Below are positions 16,293 through 58,058 of a DNA stretch of 64,000 bases, in pieces. Numbering within the stretch: position 1 is the stretch's first letter; the number at the start of each line of letters is the position of its first letter. The stretch lies in the IMG/VR virus record IMGVR_UViG_2061766007_002077; one strand, given 5' to 3'. The notes beneath the pieces are model-generated. The model worked only from the letters and a program-made list of their open reading frames with translations. It had not been told where the DNA came from and did no database searches. This stretch comes from an uncultured virus (IMG/VR IMGVR_UViG_2061766007_002077) (lineage: Duplodnaviria > Heunggongvirae > Uroviricota > Caudoviricetes). Both the position numbers and the translations under genes were made by a program.

Positions 16293-16363
16293 TCCTCTAA
16301 AAGCATTAGAATATATCACAAAATTAGTTGAAATTACAGNNNNNNNNNNNNNNNNNNNNNNNN

Positions 16364-17107
16364 ATGAAAGGTGATTGTCTGGAAAGGATGAAAGAGATTC
16401 CGGACAACTCCATAGATATGATATTATGTGACCTCCCATATGGCGTGACAGCCAATGAACTTGATATTGTCATACCATTTGATTTATTGTGGGAGCAATA
16501 TAACAGGATAACAAAGGACAACTCAGCCATTCTTCTTTTCGGACAAGGAATATTCTATATAGACCTTGTTGACTCCAATAGGAAGATGTTCAAGTATGAT
16601 TTGGTATGGGATAAGGTCCTTACCTCAGGATTCCTCAATGCCAATAGGATGCCGTTGAGAAGACATGAGCAGATTGCTGTGTTCTATAACAATCAGCCTG
16701 TTTATAACCCACAGATGGTCAAGGGTAAGCCTAATCATAAAGTGGGGGATCTGACAAGGGAAAAGACCAATAACAATTATGGAGATTTTGAAAGGGTGAA
16801 TCCAAGTTATGATGGAATGAAGTATCCTACTTCCATAATCTCTTATGAGAAACCACATCCTTCCGTAGCCCAGCACAGAACGGAAAAGTCTGTTCCCATG
16901 TTGGAGTATCTTATCAAGACATATACAGATAAGGGAATGGTTATCCTTGACAACTGCATGGGAAGTGGAACAACTGGACTTGCCTGCATAAACACGGAAA
17001 GGGACTTTATAGGTATAGAAAAGGATGAGAGTTATTTCAAGGTATCTTGTGACAGAATCAGAGATAACTTGCCTATGTTCAGAAAGAAAGACTTGGTGAT
17101 TGAATGA
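16364..17107 (+). CDS. N6-adenine/N4-cytosine DNA methyltransferase (beta class)
   Basis: GDCLE, ILCDLPYG, HRTEKSV, LDNCMGSGTTG. Confidence 0.93.
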   Translation: MKGDCLERMKEIPDNSIDMILCDLPYGVTANELDIVIPFDLLWEQYNRITKDNSAILLFGQGIFYIDLVDSNRKMFKYDLVWDKVLTSGFLNANRMPLRRHEQIAVFYNNQPVYNPQMVKGKPNHKVGDLTREKTNNNYGDFERVNPSYDGMKYPTSIISYEKPHPSVAQHRTEKSVPMLEYLIKTYTDKGMVILDNCMGSGTTGLACINTERDFIGIEKDESYFKVSCDRIRDNLPMFRKKDLVIE

Positions 17108-17852
17108 TTAGACTATACAACGGAAACTGCCTTGATATTCTACCTAAAATAGATACCAAAGTGGATATGATACTTACAGACCCACCTTACGGAACAACGG
17201 CAAACAAATGGGACTTTGTTATTCCACTTGAACAGATGTGGCCTTTACTTCTCAATGTGGGAAAAGAGAACGCCGCCTATGTTTNNNNNNNNNNNNNNNN
17301 NNNNNAAAGCTTGTCCTGTCCAATCTTGATATGTTCAAGCATGAATGGATATGGCAGAAGAACAGAGGAAGCAACTTCGCCAACACCGTAAGAGAACCAT
17401 TCAAGGAACATGAAGAAGTCCTTGTATTCAGCAAGGGTAAATGGACATACAACAAACAAATGGAAGAAAGGGCTGAAACAGGTAAGGGAAGAATCAAGTA
17501 TGATTTCAACAAGGTAGCTTCATCAGAAAACTACAGAGAGTTCACAAGAGTTCAGAACACCCCAGAGGAACTGAGAGTTCCCTCATCTGTACAGAAGTTC
17601 AACACGGAAACCGGTAGCCACCCCACACAAAAACCTGTTCCCCTTATGGAGTATCTTATTAAGACATATACAAATAAGGGAGATACCGTCCTAGACTTCA
17701 CTATGGGTAGCGGAACAACAGGGGTCGCTTGTGCCAATCTCGGTAGAAATTTCATAGGTATTGAGCTGGACGAAACCTACTTCAAGACAGCCTGTAAGAG
17801 AATCAAGGATGCACTTCCGTTCTTTAACAATAAGATTGAGATAATCAAATGA
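17104..17852 (+). CDS. N6/N4 DNA methyltransferase (beta class; frame shifts across N gap)
   Basis: ILTDPPYG, HPTQKPV, LDFTMGSGTTG. Confidence 0.92.
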
Positions 17853-18623
17853 AGATAGAAAACGATAAGTATTACACTCCCAAAGAACTGGCTAAGGAAC
17901 TAATTGACAAGACCTTTGAAATCATAGGTAAAGAGAACGTAACCGAAATCATTGAACCCTCAGCAGGTGCAGGTGCTTTCAGTTCCCAACTTGATTGTAT
18001 CGCCTATGACATTGAACCTGAGGCACCTGGAATCATCAAACAGGACTATCTCACTTCATTTCTATGGAAAAAGAAAGGTAGACTTGTCATAGGAAATCCT
18101 CCTTTCGGTAATAGTAACTGGCTTATCATAAAGTTCTGGGAGAAGTCCATAGAGATTGCCGACTACATCGCTTTCATTCTCCCCATATCTTTCTTGAACA
18201 ACAACATCAGACTCTACCAGTTCGACCTTGTGTATTCGGAGGACTTGGGTAAAAGAGATTATAGCGGAGNNNNNNNNNNNTATCTACAAAAGACCTGCGA
18301 ACGGATTGAACAAGAAACCGAATTACAGAATGGACAGCATTAAGTTCATCGAGTATAGAAGGACAAAGACCTCAGACCCTAGCAAGATTCCTGCTGGATG
18401 GGATTATGCTTTCTGTAACTGGGGAAACGGAAGTTTCGGTAAAGTTCCGGAGTATGTGGGTCAATATGCACAGGAAATCTATGTATATATAAAGGACAAG
18501 GAAATCAAGGACAAAGTTATTGAACTTCTGTCATTCGATAACCTGAGAAATAAATTTAAATCCATTTCTGCTATGAAAGCCAGCGTAATGGCCATCAGCA
18601 GATATATTCAAGAAAATCTATAA
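17849..18623 (+). CDS. N6-adenine DNA methyltransferase (gamma-like; one gene across N gap)
   Basis: DKYYTP, IEPSAGAGAF, VIGNPPFG, IAFILP. Confidence 0.85.
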
Positions 18624-18715
18624 GGTATTGACAAAACCCCACTAATAAGATTATATTATATATACCAGTGTAGTAACTACTGGAAAAAATTGTTCTATAA
18701 AGGAAGTGTTTACTT

Positions 18716-19509
18716 ATGGCAATGGAAAAAGTAAATCCCAGCCACCCCGATAAAGTAGCAGACAGAATCGCGGGTNNNNNNNNNNAGAATCCGAAGGTTG
18801 CAGTTGAAGTCCTTCTCGGACATGGAGAGTGCAACATCATCATTGAGTCCTCTGAGAGTTTCACAGATGAGGAAGTCCAGACAATCGTTGACAGAATTGT
18901 GGGAACAAAGCTTCACCTCAATCTCAAGGTTGTTCCTCAGGACACACACCTCGCTGACAATCAGAAATCCTCAGTCCATTGTGGAGATAACGGAATCTTC
19001 AAGGGAGTTCCCCTTACAAAAGAGGATGAGGAGATTTCAAGAATCGCAAGAGAAATCTATGCGGTATTCCCCTATGACGGAAAGTATATCCTAGATGGTG
19101 ATAAGCTGATTGTATGTCAGAGTAATGCTAAGGATGAGGAACTCAGAGACCTCTGTGCTAAACTCGGATATGCTAACGCAATCATCAATCCTCTTGGATA
19201 CTGGACAGGTGGTGAGAACGTTGATGCCGGTGCCACCAACAGAAAGCTTGGTTCAGATATGGCTAGGTCAGTTTCNNNNNNNNNNNNNNNNNNNNNNNNN
19301 NNNNNNNNNNCCTTTCCAAGTCTGATGTTTCAGCCAACATTTATGCTTTCGTCAAGGCCCAGGAGACCAATAAGGTAGTAGAGTTCTCTTGTGCAATCGG
19401 TGATGGAACCATTGATGGTAAGCCCTATCAGGAAATCGTGGATTTCGCAAGAGAATACATCAAGGGTCTTGGTGGATTTGAGGCCTTCGCTGAGTGGGGT
19501 CTTTACTGA
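18716..19509 (+). CDS. metK: Compact S-adenosylmethionine synthetase
   Basis: EKVNPSHPDKVADRI, CGDNGIF, DGKY, NPLG.WTGG..DAGATNRK, SKSDVS..IYA, FAEWGL; own TTGACA at 18628. Confidence 0.88.
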
Positions 19510-19580
19510 AACGAAGAGGTCTGNNNNNNNNNNNNNNNNNNNNNNNNNNNNNNNNNNNNNNNNNNNNNNNNNNNNNNNNN

Positions 19581-20343
19581 CGGGTCAAAAACAAACATGA
19601 CAGGAACACTTCTGACCTACTTTCCCATTGACTATAAAATCTACATAGAACCATTCGGTGGCGGAGCATCAATGCTCTTTGAAAAACAGCCCTATGGAAT
19701 GGAAGTCTATAATGACATAGAAGAGAATGTATGGTCAGTATTCAAGGTCATACAGGATGAGGAAATGTTTAACAGATTCCACCAGAGATTATCTCTGGCC
19801 CTTTATTCAAGAGACCTCTATGAAGAAGCTAAGAAAGCCCTCAAAACTGACCTCAATATAGAGGATAGAGCCTATTACTTCTTCCTCATGAGCAGAATGT
19901 CATTCAATGGAAACGGCGGATTCTCAGTCTGTAAGGAAGCGAGAAGAAACATGGTCAAGAATGTAAGCGACTTCCTTTCCAAGGTGGATATGTTGCCTGA
20001 GTATCATGCTAGATTGAGAAGGGTATTGATTGAACATAAAGATGCCTTGGAACTTCTTGACGATTACAATGACAAGAATGTATTTGCCTATTGTGACCCA
20101 CCTTATGTCCATAGCACAAGGAAAAGCCCATCTGGATACATCTGTGAAATGGAAGATGACGGACATGAGAAGTTCATTGAGAAGTGCCTTAACTTCAAGG
20201 GTAAGTTGCTTATAAGCGGATATGACAACCCCATTTATGATACACTTGTTGAGAACGGATTTGAGAAGATACACTTTGAATCACCCAACGCACATTCAGA
20301 TTCAATAGAAACTTTGTGGAGAAATTATAAGACATGGTATTGA
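19581..20343 (+). CDS. Dam/D12-class adenine methyltransferase (start in gap)
   Basis: GSK, YIEPFGGGAS, EVYND, YCDPPY, LISGY. Confidence 0.9.
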
Positions 20344-21111
20344 ACAAGATTTACAACGAAGATTGCCTTGAGCTGATACCCAAGATTGATGATGGACTTC
20401 TTGATATGGTCATGACAAGTCCCCCTTATAACACATCAAGGGACGGAGGCTCATTGGAAGATAGCTCCACAAGATATCTCAAAGATACATTCTCAGATGA
20501 AAAGACCCAGGATGAGTACATTGAATGGTGTATAAACATCTTCAATGCCCTTGAGCCTAAACTCAAGCCTAATGGTGTGATAGTCTGGAATGTAAGCTAT
20601 GGTAGCGATACCACAGGTAATGAGGGAAACAATGATACCATGTGGCTCTGTATCGCTGACCTTATCAGAAATACCCCCTTCACGGTTGCTGACAGAATAG
20701 TATGGAAGAAACCGACTTCCACCCCCAATCCAAACTCCCCCAACAGACTTGACAGAATATGTGAGGATGTGTTCGTATTCTGCAGAAAGTCAGAGCTAAA
20801 GACCTTTCATGCCAACAAGAAGGTATCATCGGTAAGAGCTACCGGACAGAAGATGTACAGCACAATCAGGAACTTCATTGAGGCGCCTTGTAATAGTGAA
20901 GTATGTGATATAAACAAGGCCACATATTCAATAGAGCTCTGTAATGCCATCTTCAAAATCTATGCCCCTAAGAACGCAGTTATCTATGACCCGTTCATGG
21001 GCAGTGGTACAACCGCAGTTGCCTGCATTGAAAATGGCCATAAGTATATAGGAAGTGAGATATCAAAGGCTCAGCTGGCATGGGCTGAGAACAGAATAAA
21101 GAAGTATCGTG
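20334..21111 (+). CDS. N4/N6 DNA methyltransferase (beta class)
   Basis: IYNEDCL, MTSPPYN, IVWKK, YDPFMGSGTT, IGSEIS. Confidence 0.9.
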
Positions 21112-21128
21112 NNNNNNNNNNNATATAT

Positions 21129-21755
21129 ATGAAGTTAAAAGAAGCTCCTTCACTTAAAGGAAAGAAATTCAGAGAATGGTATGACAACAAAGTTCCATCA
21201 AACGGAACAAAGGTCAATGTCGCAATGGCAGTATACCCGGAACATCTGACAGACAGAAGCGCTTTCCTTGGTAAGATTGACACAGAAGAGGATTATGTCA
21301 AGGAAATCAGTGAACTCATAAACACCTTTGATGAGATTATGGATGAGAACTCAGTTATTCTCCTCTCAGGATACTGGGGAAAGAACGGACTTCCCAATGA
21401 GGTGAACGCCACCTGGAAGTCAGTCATGTCTGCCATCAAGACAACAGACTACTCCATCGGTGATGTAATCGTGTGGAAGAAAGGCTCCAAGACAAAGGGA
21501 CAGAGAGAGAACAGCCTTGATGTGATATGCGAGCCCATATTCGTATTGTGCAGAAAAAGCGAGTACAGGACATATCATCTGAACGTAGAAGTTCAGACCA
21601 CAAGAGGAAACGCATCCTATCATACCCCTCTTTATAACATCATCACTACAAACGGAAAGACTCCGGAAGAAGATTACAAGCAGCTTAAAGAATATCTTTT
21701 AAGGCTCTATTGTCCCGATAACGGAAACATCTATTATATGATGGAGGAAGCATAA
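21129..21755 (+). CDS. Degenerate methyltransferase-fold paralog lacking catalytic motifs
   Basis: Retains DVIVWKK, LDVICEPIFVLCRKSE and LYCP; AVYP in place of SPPY; no DPFMGSG. Confidence 0.6.
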   Translation: MKLKEAPSLKGKKFREWYDNKVPSNGTKVNVAMAVYPEHLTDRSAFLGKIDTEEDYVKEISELINTFDEIMDENSVILLSGYWGKNGLPNEVNATWKSVMSAIKTTDYSIGDVIVWKKGSKTKGQRENSLDVICEPIFVLCRKSEYRTYHLNVEVQTTRGNASYHTPLYNIITTNGKTPEEDYKQLKEYLLRLYCPDNGNIYYMMEEA

Positions 21756-22578
21756 TGTTCAAGGTAAATGAGATTTACAATGAGGATTGCCTCCAGGTCA
21801 TTCCAAGAATGGATGACCACAGCCTTGATTTGGTCATCACCTCACCGCCCTACAACACAAGTATCTCACGTTCTCAGGACAAGAAGGACGAGGATAAGGA
21901 AAAGGGAACAAAGATTAGGAAACACTCCTACAACAGATATGACACGGATGTTGACAACAAGAGTGAAATTCAGTATGCTGAATGGGTGAGAAACATCTTC
22001 AATGCCCTTGAGCCCAAGCTCAAACCCAACGGGATAATCGCATGGAATGTATCCTATGGGGTATCATCAGAGAACTCCAATGAGGACGGAATAAACAACT
22101 CCACTTGGCTTTCCCTCATGTATATCATGGATGAGACTGACTTCACCTTATGTGATTACATCACATGGTATAAGTCAAACGCCATTCCTCTCTCCATAGG
22201 GAACAAGCTTTCAAGGATATGCGANNNNNNNNNNNGTCTGAGCTTGACACTTATCATGTCAACCATGACCCCACAAAGAGAATAGGCAACTCCATATACA
22301 CCAATCCCTATGAGAACAGGATTGAGACAAGATACAACAATGATGAAGTCTGTGAGTTCAACTCAGCCACATACTCCACAGAGTTCGTGGAGAAGATAAT
22401 CCAGCTTTATTCACCCAAGAAGGCTCTTATATTTGACCCATTCATGGGAAGCGGAACAACTGCTGTGGGATGTGTGGAATGTGGAATGAGTTACATAGGA
22501 ACTGAGCTATCTGAAAATCAGGTCAAGTGGGCCAAGAATAGAATAAAGAAAGTCAAGGGAAGTTCCTTGTGGTTCTAA
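21755..22578 (+). CDS. N4/N6 DNA methyltransferase, paralog of 20334 (one gene across N gap)
   Basis: ITSPPYN, LEPKLKPNG, FDPFMGSGTT, IGTELS. Confidence 0.9.
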
Positions 22579-28138: not shown

Positions 28139-30814
28139 TCAATAATCGTTAAGGTCTCCGTTCTCTATACCATTCATATCAGCCAAATAGTTAATGACCA
28201 GTTCAGCCTCATAAGGTGGCAGAGCCTCAAGACAATAATCAGCAAGATAATCATTGTCAAGCTTTCTCTTGAGTTTCACCCATTTACCATAGGCCTCATC
28301 TGAGATGTGTTCAAGATGTTCCTTGACCTTCTTACCTGTATTCCAGTACTCATCCCAGCAACCCATATCTCTGAGCTTGTCACCAAGGGCATCACCGTGG
28401 AAACCGGTATTCTTCTCAAGTTCATCAACTTCCTCATCAGAAAGTCCCTTACCCTTGAGGAAATCCTTCTGACTGTTGATTATTCTCTTATGCTTGTCGA
28501 AGATATCATTCATCATCTTGTTATGTCTTTCAGCCTTTGTGAGTCCCCTTTCCCTAAGGAATTCACAGACAGAGAGCTTGTTCTCGCCATACTTGGCTCT
28601 TACTTTCTGGCTGTACTCGGACTCAGGGTCCTTTCTCATGTCAAGTTCTTTTCCTGTGTGCTTCTTATAAGCCTTAGGAATGTAAAGACACATGACATTT
28701 ATGTATCTGTTCCAAAGCTTGTCAGTAGGATAATCAGACCACTTCTCAATCTCTTCGGGAGTATTCTCATAAAGTTCGTTGAGGGTCTTTCTCACATCAT
28801 CATAATAGACATCAAGACTTCCACCCTCGACATATTCTCTTATGGCTTCATTGAGAGTACCATATCTCGCATATTCCTGGAGACCTTGAATATCGACTCT
28901 GAGTCNNNNNNNNNNNNATCCTTCAAGCCAGTTCTCAACGTTCTGAACGAACTGCTTTGTATTTCCTCTGATGGCTTCATTGAGCTTGTGGGCCTTTATG
29001 GCTGACTTGCTCTCTTTGAGGTCACCATCATCAATTTTCTTCTTTGCGGCATCCTTTGAAGGGAGAACTCCACCTACTGACCTGTTACCGACACAGATTG
29101 TGAAATAAGTTTTCTCGGGGTCTGGGTCCTCATCATCCTCATACCATTCACAGATGTCATATCCCTTATATTCTTCCTCACTGACCGGAATGAGTTCTTC
29201 TTCCTCTTCTTCCTCATCTTCATCTTCTTCATCCTCAGCATCAGGATTTCTGAGTCCCAAGGCTTCATAGACATAATCGGAATCGAACCAAAGAAGGTCA
29301 TTGAGTTCAGTCTCACCTATTCCGTCTGGATACATCTCATCAATGAATCTTTCAAGGTCATCAATGGCATCATTTTCTTCAATATAATCCCAAGTTTCGA
29401 CAGCACCACTCCAAGGTTTATAGCTTCCAGGGAAATCATAATAGACTCTAGCCTCATTCAACTTGGTATTAGGGGTCTTAAAAACTCTGTTTTCCCTCTT
29501 GGGAGCCTTCTCGATATTTCCAAGCATCTCATCTCTTTCGCTGCTTGTAATCTGTCCCTGCTTGTAGAGGTCTTCAACATAGTCAGGACTTATTCTGCTC
29601 CAGTCAACCTTATGGTCATCACACTTGAGCCACTGGTCATAGACATAATCATAATCAACACCCATGAGGTCAGCGAGCTTATCAAATACTCTTTCCCTAA
29701 TAATGCTATCACCGGGGAGATACTGATAAATATCATCATAAGAATCAAGACACTGGAAAATATGATTGAAAGTGATATAATCATCAATCTCATCACCCAT
29801 GTCATCATCAGGATATTCTTCCTTATACCACTCAGCTACTTTAAGGCTAAGAGGGTCATCGCCGTCATCACCTTCAGCATAAGGGGAGTCATTGAATTCC
29901 ATGCTCTCACGGACAAGCTTCTCTTCTTCCTCTTTACCAGGAAGTTCTTCCGTTTCTTCGGAATTTGGATTGGAAGCAACAATAGCTGACCCTTCTTCTC
30001 CTTCTATTTCAGCCTTGATTTCCTCATCTGATTTCTCAGGTTCAAAGCTGGTTTCCTCTGGTTCAATTTCAGGAAGGGGCTCTGGTCCTACTTCTGGGAG
30101 AGGCTCAGGTCCGATATCATCGGCAACTTCATCAGCTGAGGGTTCTTCTTCTATGGGAAGTTCCTCAGAAGGCTCCTGCTCAAATTCAAATTCAAAATTA
30201 TCAAAATCAATGTCATTATCGACATCTATGACTTTAAGAGGTTCTTCTGGAAGTGGATACCAAGCAAACACATTTTCCCACTTGATAGAATCACATCCGT
30301 TCTCACAGAATGTGTATTCCTCATCAAGGACAACACCACTGAAGTCATCACCTGTTTCCTCGTCAACAAGATGGTCTGAGAAGATACCTGTGACAGGACA
30401 TGGGAAATCAGGGACATCAACAGCAATAATCTGCTTCTCCTTAGGATATCCAGCAACTTCCTTATCAGTAATATACTTCCACTGTCTTACATTGGAAAGT
30501 GGGACACCAAGTCCGTCAGCCATACAGAACATCTTCTGCTCAGGCTCATAAAGTCCGATGTAAATCTTTCCATCGGCGATGAACCATACATTGTCGCAAT
30601 CTGGAAGTAACTCCAGAGTATCCTGCCATTTATCCACAAATAAAACANNNNNNNNNNNNNNNNNNNNNNNNNNNNNNNNNNNNNNNNNNNNNNNNNNNNN
30701 NNNNNNNNNNNNNNNNNNNTCCCAATCCCAATCATCTGGGTCTTTAGTATCTGACGGACATCCAAGAAGTCCTGTGATACCTCTGCGCCTTCTAAGTTCT
30801 TCAAGCTTCATCAT
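28139..30814 (-). CDS. 891-aa acidic multi-module protein (DUF551-like N-terminus; putative polyprotein)
   Basis: VFAWYPLPEEP, E/P linker, then modules split by LVRES, LNEA, LKES, LNEA, LRE, VKE. Confidence 0.7.
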   Translation of the reverse strand: MMKLEELRRRRGITGLLGCPSDTKDPDDWDWXXXXXXXXXXXXXXXXXXXXXXXXXVLFVDKWQDTLELLPDCDNVWFIADGKIYIGLYEPEQKMFCMADGLGVPLSNVRQWKYITDKEVAGYPKEKQIIAVDVPDFPCPVTGIFSDHLVDEETGDDFSGVVLDEEYTFCENGCDSIKWENVFAWYPLPEEPLKVIDVDNDIDFDNFEFEFEQEPSEELPIEEEPSADEVADDIGPEPLPEVGPEPLPEIEPEETSFEPEKSDEEIKAEIEGEEGSAIVASNPNSEETEELPGKEEEEKLVRESMEFNDSPYAEGDDGDDPLSLKVAEWYKEEYPDDDMGDEIDDYITFNHIFQCLDSYDDIYQYLPGDSIIRERVFDKLADLMGVDYDYVYDQWLKCDDHKVDWSRISPDYVEDLYKQGQITSSERDEMLGNIEKAPKRENRVFKTPNTKLNEARVYYDFPGSYKPWSGAVETWDYIEENDAIDDLERFIDEMYPDGIGETELNDLLWFDSDYVYEALGLRNPDAEDEEDEDEEEEEEELIPVSEEEYKGYDICEWYEDDEDPDPEKTYFTICVGNRSVGGVLPSKDAAKKKIDDGDLKESKSAIKAHKLNEAIRGNTKQFVQNVENWLEGXXXXXLRVDIQGLQEYARYGTLNEAIREYVEGGSLDVYYDDVRKTLNELYENTPEEIEKWSDYPTDKLWNRYINVMCLYIPKAYKKHTGKELDMRKDPESEYSQKVRAKYGENKLSVCEFLRERGLTKAERHNKMMNDIFDKHKRIINSQKDFLKGKGLSDEEVDELEKNTGFHGDALGDKLRDMGCWDEYWNTGKKVKEHLEHISDEAYGKWVKLKRKLDNDYLADYCLEALPPYEAELVINYLADMNGIENGDLNDY

Positions 30815-37785: not shown

Positions 37786-37837
37786 AGGAGACAATGGTCT
37801 ATGATGATTGGAGAGAGTAAATCTCTCCATAATTTCT

Positions 37838-37962
37838 GGGGGTATATCGGTATTCGACCAGTAAGGTGATTAGGAGAGACGAAAGGCCCATGCTACGAAA
37901 TCCCCTGTTCCCTAATAAGGACGCACTGAACTGACACAGAGGTTCGACTCCTCTTACCTCCA
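37838..37962 (+). ncRNA. ssrA: Minimal tmRNA-like RNA (tRNA-like domain intact, mRNA domain greatly reduced)
   Basis: GGGGGTA/TACCTCC-A acceptor stem with G3-U70; GGTATTCGAC D-loop motif; CAGT/ACTG helix; AGAGG-TTCGACT-CCTCT T-arm. Confidence 0.75.
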
Positions 37963-37988
37963 TAAAAAAGATAAGGAAGTGAAAGCAA

Positions 37989-38525
37989 ATGATAGAAATA
38001 GTCAACACACAGATTCTGTATGAGTCAGAAGACGGAAAAAGATGGTCAAGTAAGATTCAGTGCGAATCCTGGGAAGCAAGATGTAAGGCAGAGAAGGCCA
38101 TGAAAGAACAGAAACACTCTCTTGATGAGTTCTGTCACAGTATTATCAAGTTATATAATCCGACCCCAGGATATCTCAGCACACCATATCGTGAGGTTGG
38201 TGATGGAGACTGGTATGTGGTATGGCCTCTGACCCAGGAGCATATTGACTTGTTGAATGTCTATATCAACTTCTGGAGAGAGGTTGAGGAAGTCAGTGTT
38301 ATATTCTACAAGGACCTTGATGGATTCAAGATTGACAGACCATACATAATGATTCAAGACTTCAATAATGAGTACATATGGTTCGGTGAGCCTGACACAA
38401 TCATACAGACTGTAGAGAACAGAATGAGGGAAGACCTTGATGATTTCAAGGAGAACATCAAAGATGTAGAGGAAATGTATGTCAAGTGGGACAGACAGAA
38501 GCTGCAGATTCCTAAGTACAAATAA
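37989..38525 (+). CDS. Hypothetical protein
   Basis: YESEDGKRWSSKIQCESWE N-terminal motif common in phage proteins. Confidence 0.65.
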   Translation: MIEIVNTQILYESEDGKRWSSKIQCESWEARCKAEKAMKEQKHSLDEFCHSIIKLYNPTPGYLSTPYREVGDGDWYVVWPLTQEHIDLLNVYINFWREVEEVSVIFYKDLDGFKIDRPYIMIQDFNNEYIWFGEPDTIIQTVENRMREDLDDFKENIKDVEEMYVKWDRQKLQIPKYK

Positions 38526-39951: not shown

Positions 39952-39996
39952 ATTTCTTTATTTAAAGAAAAATCAGCTTATAATATAAGTACATAT

Positions 39997-40068
39997 GGAC
40001 GGTTCGTCTAGTGGTCAGGACATCGGGTTTTCATCCCGGCAACAGGAGTTCAATTCTCCTACCGTCTG
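39997..40068 (+). tRNA. tRNA-Glu (TTC)
   Basis: GGACGGT/ACCGTCT acceptor, GTCTAGTGGTCAGGAC D-arm, TCGGG-TTTTCAT-CCCGG anticodon arm, AGGAG-TTCAATT-CTCCT T-arm; no encoded CCA. Confidence 0.92.
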
Positions 40069-40168
40069 ATTACTCCAATATATAGGATACCACTGAGGAT
40101 AGAGGTAAAAGGCAGGCATTTTAAAAAATAAACCCCACATTTCTGTGGGGTATTTTTTTGTCTTATGA

Positions 40169-55958: not shown

Positions 55959-58058
55959 ATGCGTAAAGCCACAGAAAAAGAAATAAATGATTTCATCAAA
56001 TACAGAGCCAACCATGTGGCTCTTGTCCAGAGAATCGGTAAAGTTGTCTTTGACAAGGATTTCTCTGACCATGNNNNNNNNNNNNNNNNNNNTGAGAAAC
56101 TGAATCTCTATGCTTTAAGAAACGCCATGATAAATGGAACTTATCACCCTCATGGAGAGGATAAAAAAGAACTTGATGGACTTGCTGGTGAGCACATCAA
56201 ATCACAGAAACATCACCCTGAATATTGGGACCCAGCAATAAGCCCTAAGAACTTTGATGATAGTAATCCCCCTCAGTGCTTTCCTTCTAGGATGCCAGAC
56301 AGATATCTCTTGGAAATGTGCTGTGACTGGGCTGCTGTGGCTTTAAAAAGAAATCAGCCCCTTTTCCAATGGATTAACAAGAACTGCTTCGGTGACAACA
56401 AGAGATTCAATTTCACAGACAGACAGAAAGACCTTATTGTTGAATATACCAATAAGATAATTGATGCCATAAGCAGAGAGCATCTTGAATATCCTGGAGT
56501 AAAATACACTGCAAAGCAGGTGGAGCCTAAGATTGAATCCAAATTAAATGAATCAGAGGAGCAGATATACTCAGACAAGTTCAAGGCATGGTTCGGTGAT
56601 TGGGAAAAAGACCCCGAGAACTCAAGTAAGGTTGTGGATGATGATGGAAAGCCTTTGGTGGTANNNNNNNNNNNNNNNNNNNNNNNNTTTGATTCATTCA
56701 AACCCAACACCTATTTCTCCAGCAATCCAAACATGGCATCTTGGTATACATCCAATGATGAAGAATGGTTGAACAACCAGTGGTATAGAAATGAGAATAA
56801 AACATATGCCTGCTATCTGAATCTTAGGAATCCTATGATTGTGGATGCAGAGGATGAGACTTGGGATGATATATCCTTTGAAGGTAAGAAAGTAACCACA
56901 GATGAACTCATAGATATAGCCAAGAGCAGAGGATATGATGGTCTGATAGTGNNNNNNNNNNNNNNNNNNACTGACTTCGGTGATGATTATGTCATATTTG
57001 ACCCTAATCAGGCCAAGTCAGCTACAGACAACAACGGTGAGTTCAGCAAGTCAAGCAGATTCAATGAGGATGATTGTGGTGGAGTCTGCGGTGTGGGGAT
57101 GTCAGCTGGATTCCAGGCTATGGCTCCAGAGAAACCAGCCAAACTCGGAGATGGAACTGGGCTCATCGACCCATCTGGAAAATTACCTCTCAAAGAATAT
57201 ATCGTGGAATCCTATAACAAGATACAGGAATCAATTCTTGATGTTCCTATGAAAGAACCTTACGAAGGAGTTATCAAAGACGGAAAGATGGCTCCTGAAT
57301 GTAGGGGACAGATTATTGAAACAATCAAGTTATGGAAGAAACAGATTAACTTTGATTTTAACATTTACAAGATATGGGCAAAGGGAAGCCTTCTCACAAA
57401 GAGATACAATGATACCACAGACCTTGATGTTGGAATCTATACGGATATGAATGATTCCCAGCTCAACCTTGTCATTCCTATTCTTCCTAAGGGACAAAAC
57501 ATCATAGTCAACGGAGAGGAAACTGCTCACCCACTGGACTTCTATGTACAGGTTAAGGAAGATGTCATTGACCTGAGTAATTTTGACGCAGTATATGATG
57601 TGGCCAATGATAAATGGGTAAAGGAACCGGAAAATTATGAGAATGAGATTCCTCTTGATTATCTCATGGAAGTGTCCAATTTCTTCATCAACGGTTGCTC
57701 AATCGCCATAAGGAATTATGAGAATGATAAAGTCTTGTATCAGTATTATGATTCACTCGACCCCGATACACAGGAAATCACAGAGGATGAGAAGGCCCAA
57801 CATCTTGCAGCCAAGAAGAATGACCTCATGGCTGACCTTGATGCCCTCAGAGTCGCCCTCAGAATGATAAGTTCATTCAGAACAGAAGCATATACTGATG
57901 GTGGAATGGACTTACAGATTAACATTACAAGTAATAACCCTCATGTGACTATCCAGGAGCAATTGGCAAAGATTCTTGAGAAGNNNNNNNNNNNNNNNNN
58001 NNNNNNNNNNNGAATGTTCCAAACTTCTTGGAGTGAAACAAGAAGTAAGGGAAAGTAA
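55959..58058 (+). CDS. Three-domain protein: HD-like + ADP-ribosyltransferase-like + Pol-beta nucleotidyltransferase-like
   Basis: HHPEYW/EMCCDW; FKAWFGDW..SKVVD.DGKPLVV, YLNLRNP, GYDGLI, FDPNQAKS; KGSLL...TDLDV. Confidence 0.7.
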   Translation: MRKATEKEINDFIKYRANHVALVQRIGKVVFDKDFSDHXXXXXXXEKLNLYALRNAMINGTYHPHGEDKKELDGLAGEHIKSQKHHPEYWDPAISPKNFDDSNPPQCFPSRMPDRYLLEMCCDWAAVALKRNQPLFQWINKNCFGDNKRFNFTDRQKDLIVEYTNKIIDAISREHLEYPGVKYTAKQVEPKIESKLNESEEQIYSDKFKAWFGDWEKDPENSSKVVDDDGKPLVVXXXXXXXXFDSFKPNTYFSSNPNMASWYTSNDEEWLNNQWYRNENKTYACYLNLRNPMIVDAEDETWDDISFEGKKVTTDELIDIAKSRGYDGLIVXXXXXXTDFGDDYVIFDPNQAKSATDNNGEFSKSSRFNEDDCGGVCGVGMSAGFQAMAPEKPAKLGDGTGLIDPSGKLPLKEYIVESYNKIQESILDVPMKEPYEGVIKDGKMAPECRGQIIETIKLWKKQINFDFNIYKIWAKGSLLTKRYNDTTDLDVGIYTDMNDSQLNLVIPILPKGQNIIVNGEETAHPLDFYVQVKEDVIDLSNFDAVYDVANDKWVKEPENYENEIPLDYLMEVSNFFINGCSIAIRNYENDKVLYQYYDSLDPDTQEITEDEKAQHLAAKKNDLMADLDALRVALRMISSFRTEAYTDGGMDLQINITSNNPHVTIQEQLAKILEKXXXXXXXXXXMFQTSWSETRSKGK

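Follow-up and report, generated by a model that had tools for sequence, protein, structure and literature searches.

The window analysed here is the whole 64,000-nt stretch of an uncultured virus (IMG/VR record IMGVR_UViG_2061766007_002077), whose source is a giant phage from cattle-gut samples. Based on Pfam and PHROG matches, the window is that of a large phage: it encodes a GroEL-type chaperonin, RecA, a clamp-loader ATPase, a T4-like portal, a primase, Hsp20, a sigma-factor-like protein and a block of DNA methyltransferases, and most ORFs have no match. The methyltransferase block is a run of six ORFs (16328-22285) with N6_N4_Mtase, N6_Mtase and D12 class domains, several of these ORFs being short and possibly split. 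Elsewhere, positions 55959-58055 encode a 699-aa protein with the ADP-ribosyltransferase domain of polyvalent proteins (ART-PolyVal) and DUF5662.

The subject of this study is a 125-nt element on the plus strand with the build of a very small tmRNA (Table 1). No Pfam or PHROG match was obtained for the four ORFs nearest to it on either side. A tRNA-Glu(UUC) gene lies 2 kb downstream (39996-40069), and its closest BLAST matches are the tRNA-Glu genes of T4-like and Erwinia jumbo phages. This tRNA also has no encoded CCA, so that both RNAs would depend on the CCA-adding enzyme of the host.

Table 1. Features of the mini-tmRNA locus, in window coordinates
Feature	Position	Strand	Remarks
Upstream hairpin	37809..37829	+	8 nt before mature 5' end; terminator-like in terminator scan
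Mini-tmRNA gene	37838..37962	+	125 nt, CCA not encoded; sequence, conservation, single match of model R1
Acceptor stem, 5' strand GGGGGTA	37838..37844	+	partner TACCTCC at 37955-37961, 7 bp
G3:U70 of acceptor stem	37840/37959	+	sequence
D-loop without D-stem, tmRNA type, TATCGGTATTCGAC	37845..37858	+	compare Rfam tmRNA consensus GGaUUCGAC
Helix-2 5' strand (CAGT, AA, GGTG, ATTAGG)	37859..37874	+	three segments
Helix 1, CAGT/ACTG	37859-62/37930-33	+	sequence
Helix 2, (G)GTG/CAC(T)	37865-68/37924-27	+	GGTG/CACT, first pair G:U
Helix 3, ATTAGG/CCTAAT	37869-74/37911-16	+	sequence
Internal loop, 36 nt	37875..37910	+	motif CGAAAGGCCC at 37880-37889; sequence
Candidate tag frame, GCT ACG AAA TCC CCT GTT CCC TAA TAA	37892..37918	+	ATKSPVP and two stops
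T-arm, AGAGG-TTCGACT-CCTCT	37938..37954	+	sole part matched by Rfam tmRNA model
Discriminator A	37962	+	sequence

As in tmRNA, the element has a GGUUCGAnUCC T-arm and a GG(n)AUUCGAC D-loop leading into helix 2; by inspection, its stem-less D-loop TATCGGTATTCGAC includes UUCGAC. Pseudoknots 1 and 2-4 are missing, helix 2 encloses the 36-nt loop only, and by eye we found no pseudoknot partner for the GGCCC of this loop in the window element. The base of the tRNA-like domain, GAC...ACAC, is a variant that also occurs in the 348-nt tmRNA of an Enterococcus phage (131 bits). As far as the sequence can tell, these features support the view that positions 37838-37962 encode a tmRNA-derived RNA with alanine identity and without space for pseudoknots. 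The initial annotation had described a complete alanine-type tRNA-like domain (acceptor with G3:U70, discriminator A, D-loop, T-arm and helices), an interior too scant for pseudoknots, an in-frame GCT...TAA TAA and a preceding hairpin, and all four descriptions hold.

The same annotation had proposed ARAGORN and Infernal as a check, and here the outcome was negative. On the window, both ARAGORN and Rfam at gathering thresholds call only the tRNA-Glu and no tmRNA. At E <= 10, the Rfam tmRNA model RF00023 matches the T-arm only, with 5.5 bits (gathering score 47 bits), and the Rfam mitochondrial tmRNA model has no match. ARAGORN makes no call on a related locus (L021) either, and the RF00023 gathering score is reached by none of five loci of the window family (window, L006, L009, L021, L028). 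The minimum free energy of the whole molecule is likewise unremarkable (z = -0.48; 61 of 200 shuffles fold equally well). A covariance model built from the window family, R1, has exactly one match in the window. Because neither the detectors nor the folding energy gives a signal, the case for the element rests on its anatomy and its conservation.

Conservation of the element and its flanks

We found the element in five other loci on five contigs, with 117-124 identical positions (94-99%). The carriers beside the window are four metagenome contigs (L006, L009, L021, L028) and one 285-kb viral contig, and there are five distinct family sequences including L001, all of 125 nt. The metagenome loci come from a pattern scan with 24 matches, of which four are this RNA, four are other mini-tmRNAs (L012, L019, L017, L023) and the remaining 16 were judged by eye to be chance or tRNA-adjacent matches; the pattern required GGNNTTCGAC, and forms with GGATTCGAC are missed. 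One further candidate, L003, was dropped on inspection, its acceptor stem not pairing.

Other searches returned few relatives. In GenBank phages, BLAST with 4.2 kb of the window and with the element alone gave only tRNA-Glu and short T-arm matches. A search of IMG/VR with the downstream protein and a central 17-mer gave only the same 285-kb contig and one unrelated match that does not look like a tmRNA. Among bacterial species genomes, a pattern for the 5' 21-mer has two matches, both within an apparent protein gene and not a tmRNA; no host tmRNA with the 5' end of the element was thus found in the genomes searched with this pattern.

The flanks of the element change more than the element itself. 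In L001/L028 the element is identical to the window at 123 of 125 positions, with flanks of ~91-94%. L006 has the same 123/125 and a downstream gene of 85%, that is, 2 changes in 125 nt of the element while the adjacent gene differs by ~15%. Taken over L001/L028, L006 and L009, flanking genes are 85-92% identical compared to 98-99% for the element. In L009 (124/125) and L021 (117/124) the downstream gene has been replaced by unrelated sequence and the element is kept; upstream of L021 the sequence is partly related. The element therefore persists as a unit in changing surroundings, as expected of a real gene and not of a decaying deletion remnant. On this comparison of sequences, 37838-37962 is a real, conserved RNA gene of the phage.

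These data bear directly on the idea that the element is a non-functional leftover, either of a recently deleted full tmRNA gene or of the 3' end of host ssrA copied at an attachment site. The silence of the standard detectors would suit such a leftover, and the family is shallow, so that part of its conservation may stem from a common origin not long ago. Against it stand the low number of changes relative to the adjacent gene in L006, the retention of the element beside a replaced gene in L009 and L021, and its presence in runs of several cattle-gut studies. An attachment site would moreover carry the 3' part only, while here the tRNA-like domain is represented by both halves, which pair; no integrase is found among the Pfam and PHROG matches of the window, and the ssrA-copy version was rejected. 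A recent deletion remnant was one of the outcomes that the initial annotation had named as fatal to its proposal, and it did not hold: the element remains 94-99% identical while its neighbours diverge or are swapped. We consider a leftover highly improbable.

Within the element, constraint is strongest on the tRNA-like domain: in L021 its 87 nt show a single change, compared to ~9 in the 38 central nt. The G:U at acceptor pair 3 is found in 5/5 family loci, and both ACGAAATCCCCTGTTCC and the motif CGAAAGGCCC are invariant in all five. Of 26 pairs, 24 are invariant in the family, two change on one side only and none changes on both sides. The inner 6-bp segment, ATTAGG/CCTAAT, is weakened in L021.

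The hairpin upstream of the RNA is also present in L006, L009 and L021. L001/L028 have a different hairpin in the same place, as does one RNA-library contig at the same distance from the 5' end of the RNA. The hairpin of the window is probably the end of the transcript of the upstream gene or a leader structure. A small frame, MVYDDWRE* (ATG...TAA, window 37794-37820), overlaps the hairpin. In L021, a longer upstream ORF ends with this YDDWRE*, so that the upstream gene of the window seems to end differently. No sigma-70 promoter was called by the scan directly upstream of the element, where only a CATAAT box is seen by eye. An ATG-started ORF of 14 codons (37890-37934) was also discarded, as its ATG is absent in L021.

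Public runs of cattle and goat gut contain the stretch. In ~15 runs, 0.19-0.32 of the sampled words of a 601-nt query are found, which is approximately the share of the element in the query. We rely only on the four runs whose contigs were inspected, among which two RNA libraries cover the element. One RNA-library contig of 151 nt spans the element from 23 nt upstream to ~2 nt beyond its 3' end, and another (37880-38035) continues into the next gene. This coverage shows that the element is present in RNA libraries, which can contain DNA. In two further RNA-library contigs of low depth, the central 46-48 nt (3-5 differences) are joined to other 5' sequence, in one case to a different tRNA-like 5' half. 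Unless these contigs are chimeric, they hint that the loop is a conserved module with an importance of its own.

Mini-tmRNAs with a shared loop motif

A wider class of related RNAs emerged when viral contigs were scanned further and model R1 was applied. In the viral-contig scans, 21 of 23 and 17 of 22 matches were dropped by eye as chance or tRNA-adjacent. Seven further lineages from phages or metagenomes, 98-123 nt long (L090, L087, L080, L045, L023, L012, L019), have in common with the window family a motif, CGAAA(A)GGCCC, located towards the 5' side of the loop. The architecture of the class is a tRNA-like domain plus a helix 2 that closes a loop of 30-60 nt, into which the window element fits. 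This grouping of mid-size mini-tmRNAs by loop motif is our own and does not correspond to a curated family. Three of the RNAs lie on viral contigs of 147 kb (L090, 105 nt), 117 kb (L087) and 21.8 kb with terminal repeats (L080). In L090 (286-660) three tRNA genes follow directly; unlike its counterpart in the window, this mini-tmRNA belongs to a tRNA array. An additional RNA of 129 nt, L017, has similar size and build (35.7 bits with R1) and no motif.

The wider-class RNAs score 31-47 bits with R1, and all eight wider loci (the seven lineages and L017) pass the RF00023 gathering score with 49-71 bits. Two TLD-only RNAs of 75 nt (L063, L071) pass it as well; the published TLD-only tmRNA of phage DS6A does not. 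Since Rfam scores the wider loci but not the window family, this kind of RNA is partly annotatable already and the window family is a divergent outlier. The first 20 nt of L063 and L071 are shared with full-length phage tmRNAs of other contigs (L065, L067, L069), which suggests repeated reduction from full-length phage genes. An identical tRNA-shaped sequence of ~118 nt on six viral contigs (L043, L051, L052, L056, L058, L060) has the acceptor GACTCAA/TTGAGTC, a T-arm, an encoded CCA and a very long insert at the place of the variable region; by inspection, it is not a tmRNA.

Covariation had been suggested in the initial annotation as a way to check the structure. The window family gave nothing of this kind (two-sided changes in 0/26 pairs). 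The class did: in ten mini-tmRNAs, 17 of 26 pairs show two-sided changes, a number reached by 0/500 shuffles, and 96.7% of cells are paired compared to 76.9% in shuffles, although the alignment is fitted to the model and thus favours structure. The acceptor stem is 100% paired, with G3:U70 in 10/10. None of the four viral records of the wider class encodes SmpB.

The motif is usually followed by 2-3 nt and G-Y-N, and this G-Y-N could close a hairpin of 2-3 bp. Across the eight lineages, we found neither a consistent pairing partner nor a known counterpart for CGAAA(A)GGCCC. For readings of the motif as a remnant of pseudoknot 1, as a bulge of helix 2 or as a Shine-Dalgarno-like site, no partner consistent across lineages was found. 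The conserved loop motif is accounted for by none of the proposed readings.

A conserved motif without explanation in trans-translation would be at home in an RNA that serves as a tRNA/tmRNA-shaped decoy for a non-ribosomal target, such as RNase R, nucleases recruited by a host defence system or a tRNA-cleaving defence enzyme. A parallel is described in the available text of PMC11662646, according to which AcrIIIA1 of a staphylococcal phage acts with tRNA/tmRNA fragments of ~90 nt that bind RNase R. However, no AcrIIIA1-like or other RNA-binding gene is recognised beside the element, and the element retains an intact alanine identity set and SmpB-type D-loop, which point to the normal partners of a tmRNA. 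A decoy of this type appears quite unlikely.

Candidate tag frame and base pairing

The seven-codon frame ATKSPVP and its two stops are kept in the family, except in L021, where the stops are lost. We regard this frame as a candidate tag frame, and the changes that fall in and around it can be read both as codons and as base pairs. In L001/L028, A37914G turns TAA into TGA, so that the tandem stop is kept as TGA TAA, and U-A into U:G. In three RNA-library contigs, C37912T turns CCC into CCT, a synonymous change, and G-C into G:U. A37925G, in RNA-library contigs, likewise turns U-A into U:G, and T37845C lies at an unpaired position. L021 has GCA in place of GCT, which is synonymous; two runs have GTC, which replaces Ala by Val and retains a possible GGC/GYN mini-hairpin. 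Finally, a pair of +1/-1 indels in L021 removes both stops, and the frame reads ATKSPVPSKDALN* into the 3' strand of helix 2. As each frame-silent change is also harmless for pairing, the coding and structural readings are not separable on these changes.

For the class, we compared the frame behind the motif in the form GGCCC-N(2-3)-GYN. A stop is found in frame in the window family, L090 (VTKAEV*), L087 (V*), L012 (AKTRLA*) and L045, and no stop in L080, L019 and L023. With three of eight lineages lacking a stop, a terminating tag frame, and with it templated tagging, is not conserved by the class; compared to the window family, the candidate frames of the mid-size mini-tmRNAs differ or are absent.

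If the frame is used, the RNA would be a complete minimal tmRNA: it would transfer alanine, resume translation at GCT 37892, add TKSPVP and stop at TAA TAA. This would recycle ribosomes and leave a short tail without a protease signal on the products. The in-frame tandem stops, preserved as TGA TAA in L001/L028, the synonymous GCT to GCA and CCC to CCT changes, and the similar frame behind the same motif in L090 (GTA ACG AAA ... TAG) all agree with this reading. So does the engineering of E. coli tmRNA, in which pseudoknots 2-4 can be replaced by single strands and pseudoknot 1 by a hairpin with tagging retained (Nameki 2000, Tanner 2006 and Wower 2009, as cited in the available text of PMC3968760), pseudoknots as such being dispensable for tagging.

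However, all the supporting changes also keep pairs (G:U in ATTAGG/CCTAAT; the GGC/GCU mini-hairpin), GCT to GTC in two runs alters the residue, and L021 lacks both stops. L080, L019 and L023 are free of stops, and over ~12 codons we estimate that a stop arises by chance in ~44% of frames. The replacements made by Nameki, Tanner and Wower reportedly kept the overall length of the ring, and we know of no 125-nt tmRNA, natural or engineered, reported to tag. In solved complexes, the pseudoknot ring wraps the beak of the 30S subunit (available text of PMC3968760); as long as helix 2 does not melt, a loop of 36 nt would seem too short for this. Taken together, we regard tagging from this frame as possible though doubtful.

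A more specific version would make the RNA the smallest natural tmRNA with complete trans-translation, with the resume codon 2 nt behind GGCCC, A-ATKSPVP as the added peptide and CGAAA(A)GGCCC as a compact substitute for pseudoknot 1. We judge this version unlikely. If true, the phage would recycle ribosomes and spare the products from ClpXP-type degradation.

Known mini-tmRNAs and a possible competitor of host tmRNA

The form described here is less singular than the initial annotation had presented it, as a TLD-only phage tmRNA is already in print. This is the tmRNA of mycobacteriophage DS6A, listed as "TLD only" by Hudson et al. 2014 (PMC4131195), whose available text adds, citing Mao 2009, that tmRNA is strongly inhibited by a molecule of this kind, perhaps through titration of SmpB. 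The available text of a 2025 database paper (PMC11915505) repeats both the DS6A entry and the inhibition, and also lists CDS-less plastid and mitochondrial tmRNAs and tags of two residues. Like the window RNA, the DS6A "no CDS" tmRNA (JN698994, ~28478-28560) is borne by a phage without SmpB; its alanine-type tRNA-like domain is complete, its helix 2 is short and pseudoknots are absent. The internal loop begins with GACGAAA in both RNAs, and DS6A has GACGAAAA at the place of the loop motif. In contrast, DS6A has ~83 nt with an insert of ~20 nt and no candidate frame, compared to 125 nt, three helix-2 segments, a conserved 36-nt loop and a seven-codon frame with tandem stops in the window RNA, and R1 gives DS6A no match at E <= 1. 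With 125 nt compared to ~83 (DS6A) and 75 (L063, L071), the window RNA exceeds the size range of the TLD-only DS6A type (~60-85 nt).

Full-length phage tmRNAs provide the other end of the comparison. The 348-nt tmRNA of Enterococcus phage vB_Edu_21C1, annotated as SsrA, resembles the window RNA in the type and the base of its tRNA-like domain and in lacking an encoded CCA; its first helix-2 segment is likewise followed by an AAGG stretch. Canonical phage tmRNAs differ from the window RNA by a region for pseudoknot 1, a tag frame preceded by an A-rich leader and downstream pseudoknot regions. Mitochondrial (jakobid, oomycete) and Mallomonadaceae plastid tmRNAs are CDS-less yet conserved alongside SmpB (available text of PMC11915505); unlike the window RNA, these organellar forms are mostly permuted or ~65 nt. 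In the literature on phage mini-tmRNAs, we found no description of a form of 100-130 nt with the CGAAA(A)GGCCC motif. By its sequence features, the window RNA is best described as a larger, divergent variant of already known phage mini-tmRNAs.

The initial annotation had also called for a search of the genome for smpB. The 84 window ORFs include no match to SmpB. IMG/VR contains a single relative, a 284.7-kb contig (G001) rated 96% complete; it carries the same RNA, and neither SmpB nor a full tmRNA was found in it; its tmRNA-model matches are weak T-arm matches only, in a tRNA array ~65 kb away.

Our preferred reading, to which we assign a probability of about one half, is that of a functional pseudoknot-free phage mini-tmRNA that competes with host tmRNA, such that products escape the degradation tag. 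The RNA would be transcribed with the neighbouring plus-strand genes, excised by the tRNA-processing enzymes of the host and given a host-added CCA, as none is encoded. Host alanyl-tRNA synthetase would charge it via G3:U70 and A73. Because the phage has no SmpB gene, the RNA would be bound by host SmpB, and it may then compete with the full-length host tmRNA for SmpB, EF-Tu and stalled ribosomes. Unfinished proteins of the infection would thereby not be given the host degradation tag and would receive at most an alanine or a short non-degron tail. Both roles put forward in the initial annotation, ribosome rescue without a degron and an SmpB decoy, are plausible.

Several observations agree with such a competitor. 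The tmRNA-type domain is complete, selection is strongest there, the element is conserved beside diverging or replaced genes, and the phage has neither SmpB nor a full tmRNA. By analogy, the DS6A precedent and the tmRNA inhibition attributed to Mao 2009 support it further, as far as these are reported in the sources above. RNA-library contigs cover the element, and the three of eight lineages that have no stop behind the motif would be compatible with an RNA that need not template a tag.

On the other hand, a pure decoy would need no 36-nt loop, yet ACGAAATCCCCTGTTCC and the motif are invariant, and the motif recurs in seven other lineages; both points count against mere competition. The tandem-stop frame, with its synonymous or stop-preserving changes, would fit translation instead. 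The joining of the central 46-48 nt to other sequence in two RNA-library contigs hints at a role of the loop itself, unless these contigs are chimeric, and the shallow family, in which no pair change is compensatory, may also be counted against the competitor reading.

Phage interference with ribosome rescue has barely been studied, and DS6A is the only phage mini-tmRNA in print. As the window gene shows, ARAGORN and Rfam miss some phage mini-tmRNAs. ARAGORN was used to assign tmRNAs in a survey of huge phages (available text of PMC7162821), and mini-tmRNAs in large phages are thus under-counted. Between TLD-only RNAs and full tmRNAs lie the mid-size forms with the shared motif, natural test cases for how much of a tmRNA suffices to resume translation, and for what a message-less tmRNA does on the ribosome.
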